From contig JAPETS010000008.1 in assembly GCA_026023565.1 (NCBI GenBank), forward strand, positions 496,001 to 560,000: a DNA stretch of 64,000 nt, written 5' to 3'. The notes below the pieces were generated by a model. That model was not told the origin of the DNA. It ran no database searches and worked only from the letters and a program-made list of their open reading frames with translations. This document shows, one piece after another, positions 41,389-49,791 of the stretch (position 1 is the first letter of the stretch; each line of letters begins with the position of its first letter). This DNA comes from Cirrosporium novae-zelandiae. Its lineage: Eukaryota. A program made the translations under genes and the position numbers.

Positions 41389-43296
41389 ATGCTCCACACC
41401 ATCCTCTCAAGTACCAATTGGGAACCAGCCTTTATCCTCCTCACCATCCCCGCCTCCCTCCTCGTCTACCTAATCATAAACGAATTCATCCGCCACTTGG
41501 CCCGAATCCCCAACTTCCCGGGCCCCAGAGGCCTCCCCGTCATCGGCAACATCCACCAGATCCGCGCCAATGCCGCCGAGCGGTACCGAATGTGGGCGGG
41601 GACGTATGGAGACGTATTCCAGATTCAGCTAGGAAACGTTCCAGTGATCGTGGTGAACAGTGCAGCGGCGGCAAAGGTGATTTTTGGGCAGAATTCGAGC
41701 TCGTTGAGTTCTAGGCCCGTGTTTTATACGTTTCATAAGGTGAGTGCGCAGATGGAATTATGCTTTCCCCCCCTCCTTCACAGCGGCCTAGTATATAACT
41801 AGGGCATTCATCTCCAAAAAGGAGAAGAATCACGGAGGCCTTCATACTCTTGTGTTCATAACCCCACCCCCCCCAAAAATGCCCATCCCCACTAACTCCC
41901 CTCACCCTCTCTAGGTCCTCTCCAACACAGCCGGCACCACAATCGGCACCTCCCCCTACACCCCATCTCTAAAACGACGCCGCAAGGGCGCCGCATCAGC
42001 CCTCAACAAGCCCTCAATCCAAACCTACATCCCGCACCTCGACCTCGAAACCCGGTCCTTCATATCCGAATGCCTCACTAAGAAGAAGGGAGGAAGCATC
42101 GACCCAATGCCTCTAATTCAGCGATTAAGTCTCAGTCTAGCCCTCACCCTAAACTGGGGCACGCGCATGGCCACACAAGCAAACCCCCTCTTTCACGAAA
42201 TCACGGCCGTCGAGGAGGAAATCAGCAGATTCCGATCCACGACAGGAAACTTGCAGGATTATATTCTGGTGCTGCGGATTTTGGGATGGTTTGGGTTGGG
42301 GTCCGGGTCGAAAAGGGCACGGGAGATGAGGGGGCGGAGGGATGTGTATCTAGGGCTGCTGAATCGGGATTTGGAGGTTAGGATGGAGAAAGGGGTTCAG
42401 AAGCCCTGCATCCAAGCCAATGTTATGCTAGATGAAGAGGCAAAGTTAAATCGCGAGGAGCTGACTAGTATTAGTTTAACCATGCTTTCTGGCGGGTTGG
42501 ATACGATAACTACCTTACTTCAATGGAGTATTGCACTACTAGCGAAGCGTCCGGATATCCAAGAGAAAGCGGTTGAGGAGTTGAGGAAGGTGTATGGGCC
42601 GGACCAATTGCTGTGTGATGCCGAGGATGATCAGAGCTGTGAATATATAGTCGCACTTGTGAAAGAATGCCTCCGGTAAGCAAAAGGCAGATGGAGCTTC
42701 TGAACCGCGTATGTTGCGTAATTAACCCCTTCACCCACCTTCAAAATAGCTTCTTCACCCCCCTCCGCCTATCTCTCCCTCGCGCATCCATCCGCGACAT
42801 AACCTACAAGGGAAAAACAATCCCCTCAGGAACAACCGTATTCCTCAACGCCTGGGCCTGCAACATGGGTACGTCCCCCCCCCCTTCCAAAAACCCCAAA
42901 CCCCCTAACCCCCTTCCCCACACAGACCCAACACACCACTCCCCCCCCTCCCCACCCCCTTCGATATTCACCCCAGAACGCCACCTCCCCCCCTACTCCG
43001 CCTCCCCTTCCGCCTCTCCCCAACTCTACACCTACGGCCTCGGCTACCGCATGTGCGCCGGCTCTCTGCTCGCAAATCGAGAACTCTATCTCGTGTTTGC
43101 GCGCATGCTTTCGTGTTTTGAGATTCGTTTGGATGGAGAGGTTGATACGGATCCGGTGAGGGGGTGTAGGGATCCGACGGGGTTGGTTAGTACGCCGGGA
43201 GGGTATCGGGTGTTTTTTGTGCCGAGGGGGGATTTGGGGGAGATGGTAGGGGGGTGTAGTGGTGGGGATAGGGATGGGGGTAGGGGGGATATGTGA
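41389..43296 (+). CDS. Cytochrome P450, phenylacetate/hydroxyphenylacetate hydroxylase-like (CYP504-like)
   Basis: N-terminal TM, PGPRGLPVIGN, SRPVFYTFHK, TIGTSP, SGGLDT, KECLR, heme motif YGLGYRMCAG; three introns. Confidence 0.85.
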
Positions 43297-43767: not shown

Positions 43768-44768
43768 TTAGAATCCCTTCTCAGCTAGTTCTTTCTCAGA
43801 CCAGTCCCACAGTTTCTCAGCTAGCTTCTCATCCCTGGCATAGGAGTTTCCTCCATTCTTCTTTCCAACAGGCACATAATATGAACCGCTCTCCAATTCT
43901 TCTTTGGCGACTGTCGAAGCCCACAGTTGGTTCTTGGTGCCATCGTGGACATTAAATCCGGGATACAAAATCCTGCCCACGGGCATCATGACCTTCCAGA
44001 ATAGTCCGGCATTGTTGATGGAGTTGTATAGATCGGTATAGATGACACCTGGATGGACTGCCACTGAGGTGATCTCGGGGTGGTGCTTGGCAAGACCCTT
44101 GGCAAAGAGGATGTTGGCAAGCTTGGATTGTCCATATCGAGTCCATTCGGCGCATGTGTTAAGGTGTTCTTGGTCGAAAATAATTCCTCCAGATGGGCAC
44201 ATCTGATGGCCTATGGATGCGAGGCTAATGATACGAACATCTGCGTTTGGCTCTTTGGCGGTGGAAAGAAGGGTTGGCATGAGGAGCTTTGTGAGGAGGA
44301 AATGGCCCATGTGGTTGGTGCCGAATTGGATTTCATAGTGTTCCTTGGTGAAGCCTGGGGGCACTGCCATAATACCAGCATTGTTCATTAGGACATCAAG
44401 GCGAGGAGATTGTGACTTGAAGGATTCAACGGCGGCTTTGATGGAGTCAAAGGAGGTAAGATCGCATTGAATAAAGGTGACGGGTGCATTTGGAACGGCC
44501 TTCTTGATATCCTCAATGGCAGTTTCAGCTTTCGAAGGAGTACGTGCGGCCATATAAATTTGCTTCGGGCTATGTCTGGACAATTGGATGATTGCTTCTT
44601 TCCCCAAGCCAGTATTTCCTACATCATTGCCATTAGCATGTGATTGACCTTTTCGAGAGAATTTCTGGAATGATAAAGGTACATACCTCCTGTTACCAGG
44701 ATGACCTTCCCAGAGAGATCTGGAATGTCAGTCTCCGGCTCCCAAGTTTTGCCTCCAAAGCCAAACAT
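43768..44768 (-). CDS. Retinol dehydrogenase/WWOX-like SDR
   Basis: DLSGKVILVTGGNTGLG across an intron, NNAG, QFGTNHMGH, YGQSK, HPGVI. Confidence 0.92.
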
Positions 44769-46046
44769 TGTGATTGTTCTTGTGATAAGTAGTACTGGGA
44801 AAGCAGTTGTAGGTAGATATGGGGTGATATGGAATATGAGATATGGGAATTATGGATGATGAAGTAGGCAATTTATTTGAATATGTGGTTCCCTGATGTA
44901 TTAGTTTTTGAGAAGCTATAGCGAAAGGAAAGGCATGAACTGAGCAGCTGCAGGGCATATTTATATAGAAATAATTGCCTGACGGTGATCTGGCCGTTTT
45001 GGTTGTACTTTGTCTGATAGTTGGGTGATCGGCCGGATATTTGGATTTGTCCGGGTCTGGTTGGTGTCTGGTTGGCGCTGTCGTACTGTACCTGTAAACT
45101 TAGATTAGGTGACATGGACTTAGCAATCATATCTTCGACATCTATCCGAAGACCAAAGTACAATGTGTAGAGTAAGTACGTATATGATATTATCGTTATA
45201 TTTAATTATTGGAGTGTTTAAAAAGATAAAGATATTATAACCGTTACGACCGTAAGCCCTAAGGATTTGTTGATGAACCGAAGGATACATGACAGGTGCT
45301 ACATAGGTTACAAATCTTTCGGGGAACAGTTTATCCTCCTTCCGCCCATCACCTACCTTAGGCACGTAGGTACACCCTACAACTGATGAACCGAGGTACT
45401 CGTGCCACTCAAATTTCCATAAGCAAAGCCTTTCGCACTTTTTTTTGATTTTTCTCTCTTTATCATAATTAAATCACTCATCATAAGTACAGTACATGAT
45501 TTATCGAGAAGTAAATTCAGGGAAACCATTAGGGGCCAGATACCATACGAGAGTGATAGTAAATATAATAGATACCCAAGTAGTCTACAAATCAATGGAT
45601 AGAATAATCACTTGTTTTTTTTTTGGTATCTTTATTTCCACCAGTAACATGCATACGTGTAGCAAATGAGATATCTATATCTATACATGTATCTATCTAT
45701 GCTTGCTATGCTTGATGACTACAAGCAACTAATTAGAGGGTTCAAAGTTCGTCTCTCTTGGGTGCCTGAGGCGCTAACCTAAAAAAAACCCCGCTCAACT
45801 TGAACCAGACGGCAATAACCGAACAATATCGCACTTTGAAAGAATTCCTAGAAATCCATTTGAAGGCGAAAGTTCAAATCAGCTCCTTCCTCAGTCTCAC
45901 CCTTTGTAAGCAATTCATCTCATTTACCTCATCCTCAACGTTTCCCATCAACAAATTATATCACTAATTTCGTCCTAGACGTCTTTACTCCTACTCATCT
46001 TCCTTCCTGGACCCGGAATCGGTGGAAGAAGGGAAGATTTACTATC

Positions 46047-46807
46047 ATGGATCCCGCAAAGTTCGCTAGACTGCAGCAGTCGGTGCGAATTGGTATGTAT
46101 TCTTTATAGGAAAATGTTTGAATTTTTTTTGAATATAATTGGACAATAACTAATATATGGCCTTGTAGGGTAAGCTTAGTTTTCTTTCCCATTCTCGCCA
46201 GATGCATATTCTCAGCCTCATCGCTTCAAGACGCAATTCCTAGATTCAACTCCATGCTTTGGGAAAGAGATATAGACTAATAGAAAAATGCGACGCTAGG
46301 GGGAAGGGTACGCCAAGAAGAAAGATGAAGAAGGTCCACAAGAACACCGGCACAGACGACAAAAAGCTTCAAACTTCTTTAAAGAAGCTCAATGTCCAAC
46401 CTATCCAGGCCATTGAGGAGGTCAACATGTTCAAGGAGGATGGCAATGTCATTCATTTTGCTGCTCCCAAAGGTATGGCACCGCTTTCTGATGAGATCCG
46501 GCAGTTCCCTATTCTATTTAGTCCCATATTGAATCTAGCTAACATGATCTCTTTAGTCCATGCTTCCGTACCATCCAACACATTTGCGATCTACGGTAAT
46601 GGCGAGGACAAGGAGCTCACTGAACTTGTTCCTGGAATCCTCAACCAGCTTGGTCCAGACTCTCTGGCCTCGCTCCGAAAATTGGCTGAAAGCTACCAGT
46701 CAATGCAGAAGAAGGAAGGCGAGGAGGGAGAAAAGAAAGATGATGAGGACGATGATGATATACCCGATCTGGTAGAAGGCGACAACTTCGAAAGCAAAGT
46801 CGAATAA
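46047..46807 (+). CDS. EGD1: Nascent polypeptide-associated complex beta subunit (BTF3)
   Basis: [41 protein letters not shown]; exons 46047-46092, 46169 (1 nt), then from 46300, plus one further intron. Confidence 0.95.
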
Positions 46808-47558: not shown

Positions 47559-48705
47559 ATGGCTAGCTCTGCCGCGGCACTTGTAGTGCCTGCTTTAAAG
47601 AAGCACACTGGTACAGTTATCATGGCCCATGGCTTAGGTGATAGGTGAGTAATTGTGGAGAGCGATTAACGTATTTTCAATCTCAATAGAATTCTCAATC
47701 GGAATTAAATTGTTATTAACTTGAATGACTTCCATATATATAAAATGGAAATAGCTAATCTGTTACTAGTGGTGCTGGATGGTAGGACTTCAAACATAAA
47801 TTGTTTCCAATGGACCTGCTAAAGTCAACGTGCAGGATTTCATTGGCAGAAAACTGGCGTAAAAGAGGGAAGTTTGAAGAAATCTCATTCATATTTCCAA
47901 ATGCGCCCTCCATCCCGATCACAGTGGTAGTCGCCCCATAGTCTCATTGAATTGAATCTCAACTAATGTCACTACCTAGAACTGGGGAATGAGAATGCCC
48001 GGTTGGTATGATATTGTAAGACTTTCTCGTTTGGTTGAAGACGAAAATGAAGTTGTTCCTATTATATCGGAAAGCTCTATTCACCTCCAACAAGCAAATC
48101 CAAATAAATATCCGCTAGCAGCTAGAAGCTTACGAGTTTTGTATAGAAAAACTTCGGCGCCTTGGTGTCAGATGACCAGGATGAGCCAGGAATTCTTCGT
48201 ACTCGGGACTATTTTAACTCCCTCATCAAAACCGAAATCGACAAAGGCATACCTTCGTATCGCATCATTCTCGGAGGATTCTCTCAAGGAGGAGCTATGT
48301 CTCTTCTGACTGGGGTCACGTCCGAAGTAAAGCTCGGAGGGATATTCGGACTCTCCTCTTATCTCCTACTTCATGATAAACTTCAGAGTATGGTTCCCAA
48401 TGAGAATCCAAATAAGGATACCCCCATCTTCATGGGACATGGTGATTCAGATCCAATGGTCAAGTATCAGTGGGCGAAGATGACAGCAGAGAAGCTCACT
48501 GAATGGGGATATAAGGTGGACTTCCATACTTACAAGTTAGCATAAGCCCCTGAAACCTCACGATAGTTCATCCTGCATTACCTTTTTACTAACTACTTTA
48601 AGGGATCTTGTACATTCCGTTGATCCCACCGAGATTGATGATCTTGAGAAATACATCATGGAGAAGCTACCTGTCATGGATCAAGGTTCTCAATCTGGTT
48701 TATGA
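47559..48705 (+). CDS. APT1: Acyl-protein thioesterase 1 / lysophospholipase
   Basis: HGLGDSGAGW (12-nt microexon 47770-47781), FPNAP, MPGWYDI, GFSQGG, HGDSDP, catalytic HS; five introns. Confidence 0.92.
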
Positions 48706-49192
48706 CTGGACCAAACGGAGCAAGGCTACAAGGCTACGGTACCACTCTGGGGTCAATTGTTGCTTAGTATCTTGATGCTATTGCTTTTATGGCATTGTTG
48801 TATTCGGAAATCTGGATCTCACACTCGGCTTCACTAGATTTCCTTTGGACTCTTCTCTGCTAGCTTAGATTAAAATTAACGACATGGATTGGCAATATTA
48901 GATAATTCGTAAAATGCATCTCCTTTCATGAGGGTAGTAGTACGAAGCCCTTGATATCCGTATTTAAATGGCCAGGGTAAGTTGCATAAGAACTTGTTCT
49001 TCATGGATAGTAAAGCTGCCTTTAAATGTAAGTGAATAGCGTCGTTAAATTTCTATACCCGGCTATAACAAAACACCGGGCCGATAATAATCCGATATTC
49101 CACTGACGTAACTCAGTAGCTACCTTCAAAGAATTCATTTATTGAATAACATCTCAGCATACTTCCAACTCACCACCTAAAATACCTTCAAC

Positions 49193-49791
49193 ATGTTCCG
49201 ATTTGTTGGTTGCAGAAGCTCCCCTAGATCTCCAGACGGGTCGGCTGACGTGATAATATTATAGCACAAAACCCTCGATGTTGTTACGCTTTTCCACAAG
49301 CCCACCCTTCCGACCTCGACTAGAGTCCTTACTTTGTTGAAGCAAGCTTCAGCGCAAGCCAGTGACTATGCTACCGAAGACCAAGCCTCGGACCATTCTC
49401 ATCACAACAAAGTCCAACGGGCTGGCTTCGAATTAAACGTCACCGAGGATGCACCAACTAGCGACCAGCTCCGAACTATCTTGCAATACGTTGGGGCAGG
49501 TAGAGTCGGTGAATTAGTTAAAGGTGCACGTAATGAACCAGATGCTCTGAGGAAGTTGAAAGAAAGTGGAGAAAACTTCCAACGGCCCGTGGTTTGCTCC
49601 CTCTGAACATGCGTATCGAGTAACAAACTGACATGGCCTATAGACTGTCGACTGGAACAATGGCAAAGCAGGTAAACACCCCCCTAGATCTTCTAGACAT
49701 TATTGAAGTTCACCATGTTGTAGTTGTTGGAGCAAAGGAGTCAGAGATTCTCAAGATGCTCAATAGCCTCCCAGGCGAGGACAACTCCTAA
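49193..49791 (+). CDS. FMP46: Mitochondrial thioredoxin-fold protein Fmp46 (DUF1687)
   Basis: MFRF|HKTLDVVTLFHKP, FELNVTEDAPTSDQLRTILQY, RPV|TVDWNNGKA. Confidence 0.8.

Follow-up and report, generated by a model that had tools for sequence, protein, structure and literature searches.

One-nucleotide exons have been described in both fungi and plants. In Fusarium, the one-nucleotide exon of CYP621A was confirmed by 18 reads (Nelson and Syed, 2026, PMC12940212). In plants, an exon one nucleotide long in APC11 of Arabidopsis, whose base is an A, was tested by substitution (Guo and Liu, 2015, PMC4674806), and 1-nt microexons have been reported in plant APC11 and VPS55, along with the observation that the flanking introns leave consecutively and that 49 of 69 Arabidopsis microexons show both excision orders, mostly with the downstream intron removed first (Yu et al., 2022, PMC8831610). 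Long reads revealed 13 1-nt exons in 13 genes of Coprinopsis cinerea; in the passages of that paper that were available and in five of its supplements the genes are not named, and no mention of NAC or BTF3 was found (PMC12230235). Two related arrangements are also relevant: the stwintrons, in which an internal intron interrupts a splice signal of an external intron (Fekete et al., 2017, PMC5587772), and the microexon of Xlr2 in Trichoderma virens (PMC11121469).

The EGD1 gene considered here resembles CYP621A in its AGGGT core, in a G that forms the middle of a glycine codon within a conserved motif, in its phase 1 and phase 2 flanks and in having been missed by annotation. CYP621A, however, is a rarely expressed P450 gene with the exon in one genus, whereas EGD1 is a housekeeping gene whose layout recurs in 38 lineage clusters and is read here from sequence alone. 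With plant APC11 and VPS55 it shares a constitutive-looking one-base coding exon near the N-terminus that is long conserved and widely misannotated, and the donors of VPS55 have also moved to A at +3, as has donor 2 of EGD1 (PMC8831610). APC11 differs in being a plant gene, in having A rather than G as its base and in having been experimentally substituted. C. cinerea shares the occurrence of 1-nt exons in a fungus but is a basidiomycete, unlike the host of EGD1. As in the [D1,2]/[A2,3] stwintrons, which also belong to Pezizomycotina, two U2 reactions would follow each other in EGD1 by intron definition at almost the same point; stwintrons, however, have an interrupted splice signal and share a G that is part of the intron, whereas EGD1 has all its signals whole and its G belongs to the coding sequence (PMC5587772). 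The Xlr2 microexon is likewise a fungal microexon near the N-terminus missed by gene models, but it is 20 nt long, glucose-regulated and switch-like, in contrast to the constitutive-looking single base of EGD1 (PMC11121469). Surprise is limited by the earlier descriptions of the class in plants and fungi; at the level of sequence EGD1 has what characterises the CYP621A and APC11 exons, and it would work as they do. No paper on a one-base exon in EGD1 or NAC-beta was found in the literature searched, outside which subscription papers mostly fall.

Anatomy and reading frame of EGD1

On the + strand of the 64-kb stretch of DNA analysed (the window), a NAC-beta (EGD1/BTF3) gene runs from a start ATG at 46047 to a TAA at 46807, and is laid out as follows.

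45906..45978, + strand: probable 5'UTR intron, 73 nt, GTAAGC..ACTAAT..TAG, its end 68 nt before the ATG
46047..46092, + strand: coding exon 1, 46 nt, ending in phase 1 (15 codons, then base 1 of the Gly16 codon)
46093..46168, + strand: intron 1, 76 nt, with a GTATGT donor, ACTAAT at 46149-46154 and TAG
46169, + strand: putative one-nucleotide exon G, the middle base of the first Gly codon in RIGGKG
46170..46299, + strand: intron 2, 130 nt, with a GTAAGC donor, ACTAAT at 46276-46281 and TAG
46181-46191 with 46260-46270, + strand: predicted 11-bp stem in intron 2, which would draw donor 2 towards its branch point
46300..46472, + strand: exon 3, encoding GKGTPRRK and the beginning of the NAC domain
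46473..46556, + strand: intron 3, 84 nt, in frame and stop-free
46557..46807, + strand: last coding exon, ending at the TAA

By sequence comparison, the N-terminus of the encoded protein resembles those of relatives and of human BTF3. A search of the organism's own genome with exon 3 returned EGD1 as the single match, so that one NAC-beta copy was found; a second NAC-domain match in the genome lies in a protein with a C-terminal UBA-like end, which we take to be NAC-alpha. Exon 3 by itself matches the NAC domain PF01849 (E 3.5e-15, a profile match above the cut-off), and the combination of this domain with a basic N-terminal ribosome anchor after RxGGKG marks the protein as NAC-beta, the basic RRKKK motif of NAC being described as the ribosome anchor in PMC13186951.

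Exon 3, at 46300, must open with the third base of a codon, and a 207-nt stretch separates it from exon 1. Keeping G46169 yields a 156-aa protein containing RIGGKG; skipping it shifts the frame to a TGA at 46326-46328 after 24 aa, and retention of intron 1 or intron 2 gives 20 aa or 16 aa, respectively. A single base thus stands between a complete acceptor and a complete donor, and the frame depends on it. The original prediction, made from the same DNA, had held that RIGGKG needs the single G46169 between two introns, that the junction reads six Gs with the exon and five without it, and that skipping leads to an early stop; its coordinates are exact, and the frame, the count and the stop were all confirmed. 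It had also named the finding that would speak against it, other splice sites that restore the frame without this base, but our sequence search found no single intron that yields RIGGKG: none of the 52 in-frame single GT/GC-AG introns listed for EGD1 does so, nor does any AT-AC solution.

The requirement for this motif is not peculiar to the window. Human BTF3 chains in the PDB read VRIGGKGTARRKKK, with two glycines before KG. Among 150 distant cluster representatives, the KG[ST]xR motif is present in 109 (41 are without it), and RxGG-KG in 90 of the 109; of the other 19, 12 are close relatives (74-90% identity to the query) whose junctions are aberrant, while two glycines persist in 3. Because two glycines before KG are general, both in these representatives and in human BTF3, the NAC-beta protein would be expected to need both. 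Chance is a poor source for the signals involved: a branch point followed by HAG-G-GTR appears in 0.3% of dinucleotide shuffles of the 207-nt stretch (2.3% if no branch point is required), and on both strands of the 64 kb a strict form of the motif turns up a single time, at the G46169 site. We regard G46169 as almost certainly a real one-nucleotide exon.

The skip-frame TGA overlaps an in-frame ATG (ATGA, 46325-46328), at which re-initiation would give NAC-beta minus its first 23 residues. The position of this ATG (46325) is Val or Thr in most relatives, and the re-initiation layout is not general.

Relatives and their spliced-looking sequences

A metagenome scan gave 411 confirmed relatives, and the best 80 of the 411 were analysed, a choice that skews the sample to close relatives. 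Seventy-six of these 80 loci are genomic and share the window's boundaries for exons 1 and 3. All 76 contain an internal HAG-G-GT at the same codon, with the base always G, and in all 76 intron 1 occupies the same position. Removal of 16 exact duplicates reduced 77 sequences to 61 distinct ones (window included), which fall into 38 clusters. The AG-G-GT core is present in 38 of 38 clusters (shuffles, 3.9% per locus) and is accompanied by a fitting CTRAY branch point in 35 (shuffles, 0.3%). The introns themselves vary, intron 1 from 59 to 487 nt and intron 2 from 58 to 190 nt across clusters, with variable interiors. Intron 3 is found in the same position in 37 of 38 clusters; its retention would insert 28 aa within the NAC domain, an in-frame, stop-free state seen in 4 of 37 clusters only. 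Upstream of EGD1, 13 of 36 clusters show a pattern like that of the 5'UTR intron, where shuffles would lead one to expect 3.6; two of the 38 clusters were dropped from this test.

Among named NAC-beta proteins, those in which the junction is faulty belong to Lasallia, Blastomyces, Aspergillus, Botrytis, Pyrenophora, Exophiala, Rhizina and Dactylellina, genera placed in classes of Pezizomycotina, and this suggests that the one-base exon ranges across that subdivision. A search of genome contigs for further lineages confirmed none. On a viral contig, L084, positions 1201-1290 give a weak NAC-like match (43% over 30 aa).

Four contigs of 1.0-1.6 kb (L020, L022, L030 and L043) are without all three introns, and all four read RIG-GKG; they could also be intronless genes. 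Since the first Gly codon ends in T or A in these contigs (A in L030 and L043), no G-run ambiguity attaches to the extra base. A similar picture emerges from 42 non-NCBI proteins, taken as direct ORF calls on contigs: 19 are without intron 3, and RxGGKG is found in 18 of these 19 and in none of the other 23. One spliced-looking protein of this non-NCBI set, P0044, shares 98% identity with what genomic locus L081 is predicted to encode. Among the loci compared there is no same-species pair of transcript and genome, the best transcript-to-genome match being 92.5% in exon 3. P0110, from a 1003-nt contig, has 36 unrelated, intron-2-like residues before GKG and no intron 3, which is compatible with either a partly spliced transcript that retains intron 2 or a gene that has lost intron 3. 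By inspection, the skipped form, with its shifted exon-1 frame, was seen in none of the four contigs and 19 proteins; because assembly loses rare isoforms and NMD removes skipped RNA, this argues only weakly for constitutive use.

Order of splicing and the question of regulation

Based on these signals, we propose that EGD1 carries a pair of ordinary U2 introns that would be excised one after the other by intron definition, each with a donor, branch point and acceptor of its own. The acceptor AG of intron 1 also forms the -3/-2 exon flank of donor 2, and simultaneous assembly of two spliceosomes on the shared AG-G-GT bases is unlikely. Because the acceptor of intron 1 and the U1-binding region of donor 2 overlap on these bases, removal should be consecutive. 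The first excision would join G46169 to one of its neighbours, so that the second step meets a normal exon. By analogy with plants, removal of the downstream intron first may be slightly likelier, and the stem in intron 2 may help here. Skipped or intron-retaining by-products would stop early and be cleared by NMD as noise. Of the ordered excision in the original prediction, consecutive removal is thus retained on the strength of the overlapping signals, whereas an obligatory order is not. That G46169 is constitutively included and the two introns are removed consecutively appears likely to us. The anatomy, the dependence of the frame on the base, its conservation and its inclusion in spliced-looking sequences of relatives are shown, and from them we infer its inclusion in this organism, the consecutive order, constitutive use and NMD of by-products.

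The splice signals that flank G46169 are consensus sequences, at or above the average of the gene. The +3 base of donor 2 is A in 38 of 38 clusters, compared with 17 of 38 for donor 1 and 29 of 37 for donor 3, one cluster having been dropped from the last count (Fisher p 2e-8 against donor 1 and 0.002 against donor 3, with kinship among clusters ignored). Such an invariant A fits selection for reliable use. Intron self-pairing as an inclusion device is an idea from yeast work, and the 11-bp stem in the window's intron 2 has a duplex energy of -16.1 kcal/mol (z -4.1 against arm shuffles), but folding of the complete intron does not surpass that of shuffled sequence (z +1.1). No conserved donor-to-branch pairing was detected in relatives (own -7.46 versus swapped -7.49 kcal/mol, p 0.53, n=36); over the three arm lengths tried, own versus swapped gave p 0.26, 0.53 and 0.48, each test leaving out 2-12 clusters that lack a branch point or sufficient length. 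We reject self-pairing as a family trait, the stem being without counterpart in relatives; in this species, the predicted stem could favour inclusion.

Two introns that meet at almost one point, with a single G between them, are the hallmark of [D1,2]/[A2,3] stwintrons in the account of PMC5587772, but the internal introns there overlap by one G and leave a product one base shorter than skipping, whereas EGD1 needs one base longer. In a stwintron or nested intron, the G would lie within an interrupted splice signal and the order of excision would be obligatory. In contrast, both EGD1 introns carry a complete donor, branch point and acceptor in the unspliced RNA, and no signal of either is interrupted. 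An obligatory inside-out order is not expected either, as whichever step came first would leave a valid second intron and lead to the same mRNA. With its signals intact and G46169 exonic, the locus does not bear out the "stwintron-like" label of the original prediction, and we find a stwintron scarcely credible here. Recursive splicing through a zero-length exon, in which AG and GT are juxtaposed and no base is left in the mRNA, was also rejected; one required base lies between acceptor and donor. It is more conceivable, and yet very unlikely, that a single long intron is removed and the frame is restored by another acceptor, by polymerase slippage or ribosomal frameshifting on the G run, or that an assembly error dropped a G. 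The window's exon 3 does begin with four Gs, and exon 3 begins with AG in 17 of 38 clusters, where an acceptor two bases downstream would be in frame and one Gly short, as in many public models. That acceptor is absent from the window, however, where no single intron gives RIGGKG; the phase mismatch and the internal AG-G-GT recur in 76 of 76 loci, and of the 38 clusters just 3 have an exon 3 that starts GG, while in 18 it starts with T or C; both glycines are also present in L030 and L043, in which A closes the Gly codon; and the Swiss-Prot entry of Parastagonospora nodorum, Q0ULD0, has RIGGKG where an NCBI model has RIGKG.

The original prediction saw in the exon a possible built-in unproductive-splicing switch. 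If G46169 were regulated, skipping or retention coupled to NMD would tune NAC-beta to ribosome supply or stress. Such an exon might be an old control point in filamentous ascomycetes, at which slow, mutually exclusive assembly diverts EGD1 pre-mRNA to NMD, possibly with feedback from NAC; if real, the switch would mean that a core translation factor has a one-base exon under regulation. The skipped and both retained outcomes do stop early in the window (24, 20 and 16 aa), but an early stop on skipping follows from any exon length that is not a multiple of three and is therefore trivial; moreover, the skip-frame stop lies anywhere from 9 to 50 codons past the junction and is missing from exon 3 in 2 of 38 clusters. 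All 38 clusters preserve the layout, but the ordinary intron 3 is kept nearly as well (37 of 38), so that conservation by itself implies no regulation. A UPF1 gene is present in the genome, the length of intron 2 is concentrated at 110-157 nt in 33 of 38 clusters, P0110 is possibly an intron-2-retaining transcript and a regulated fungal microexon of 20 nt, that of Xlr2, is on record (PMC11121469). Against these points, the skipped form is absent from the four contigs and 19 proteins, the splice signals are strong, no 6-mer of intron 2 is shared by more than 8 of the 38 clusters (shuffled maximum 9), and donor-to-branch pairing is not conserved (p 0.53, n=36). There was no Rfam match in the EGD1 introns, and two weak matches in the last exon (E 0.18 and 0.83) are taken as chance; 6-mers, pairing and Rfam together revealed no conserved intronic control element beyond the splice signals. 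The switch is possible but found no support, and we consider regulation of the exon improbable; the same improbability attaches to an old control point in these fungi.

Public NAC-beta models and the neighbourhood of EGD1

Gene prediction frequently goes wrong at the one-base exon. In the first search, the conserved junction was present in 4 of 78 NCBI-sourced proteins, and 62 further NCBI members of six clusters comprise 9 with the conserved junction, 17 with RxGKG (one Gly short), 24 with other junctions and 12 without the motif. These samples are biased to odd models, as the query held intron-derived residues and correct models pool in few clusters, and the counts are not genome-wide rates. 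In the 17 of 38 clusters whose exon 3 opens with AG, predictors have an in-frame acceptor available two bases further downstream, which would explain models that are one Gly short. RIGKG models are probably mis-calls of this acceptor, and we take the 17 RxGKG members to be gene-model errors, although a real lineage change may yet be reflected in RIGKG. Models from Aspergillus, Penicillium, Blastomyces and Histoplasma (P0117, P0177-P0188 and others) consistently read RIGKG.

The one-base exon would explain a systematic fault, namely that many public fungal NAC-beta sequences have an incorrect N-terminus beside the ribosome anchor. EGD1 is conserved and presumably highly expressed, with orthologues in tractable moulds, and should be a good substrate for studying what the spliceosome does with a pair of introns separated by a single base. 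The questions it suits include the order of excision, the rate of skipping and the role of the invariant GTA donor.

EGD1 is surrounded in the window by other recognisable genes, the limits of which are approximate.

43768-44849, - strand: short-chain dehydrogenase (PF00106)
47559-48700, + strand: phospholipase/carboxylesterase (PF02230)
49177-49790, + strand: DUF1687 gene

An ORF at 42643-43296 on the + strand carries what we take to be a P450-like heme motif.
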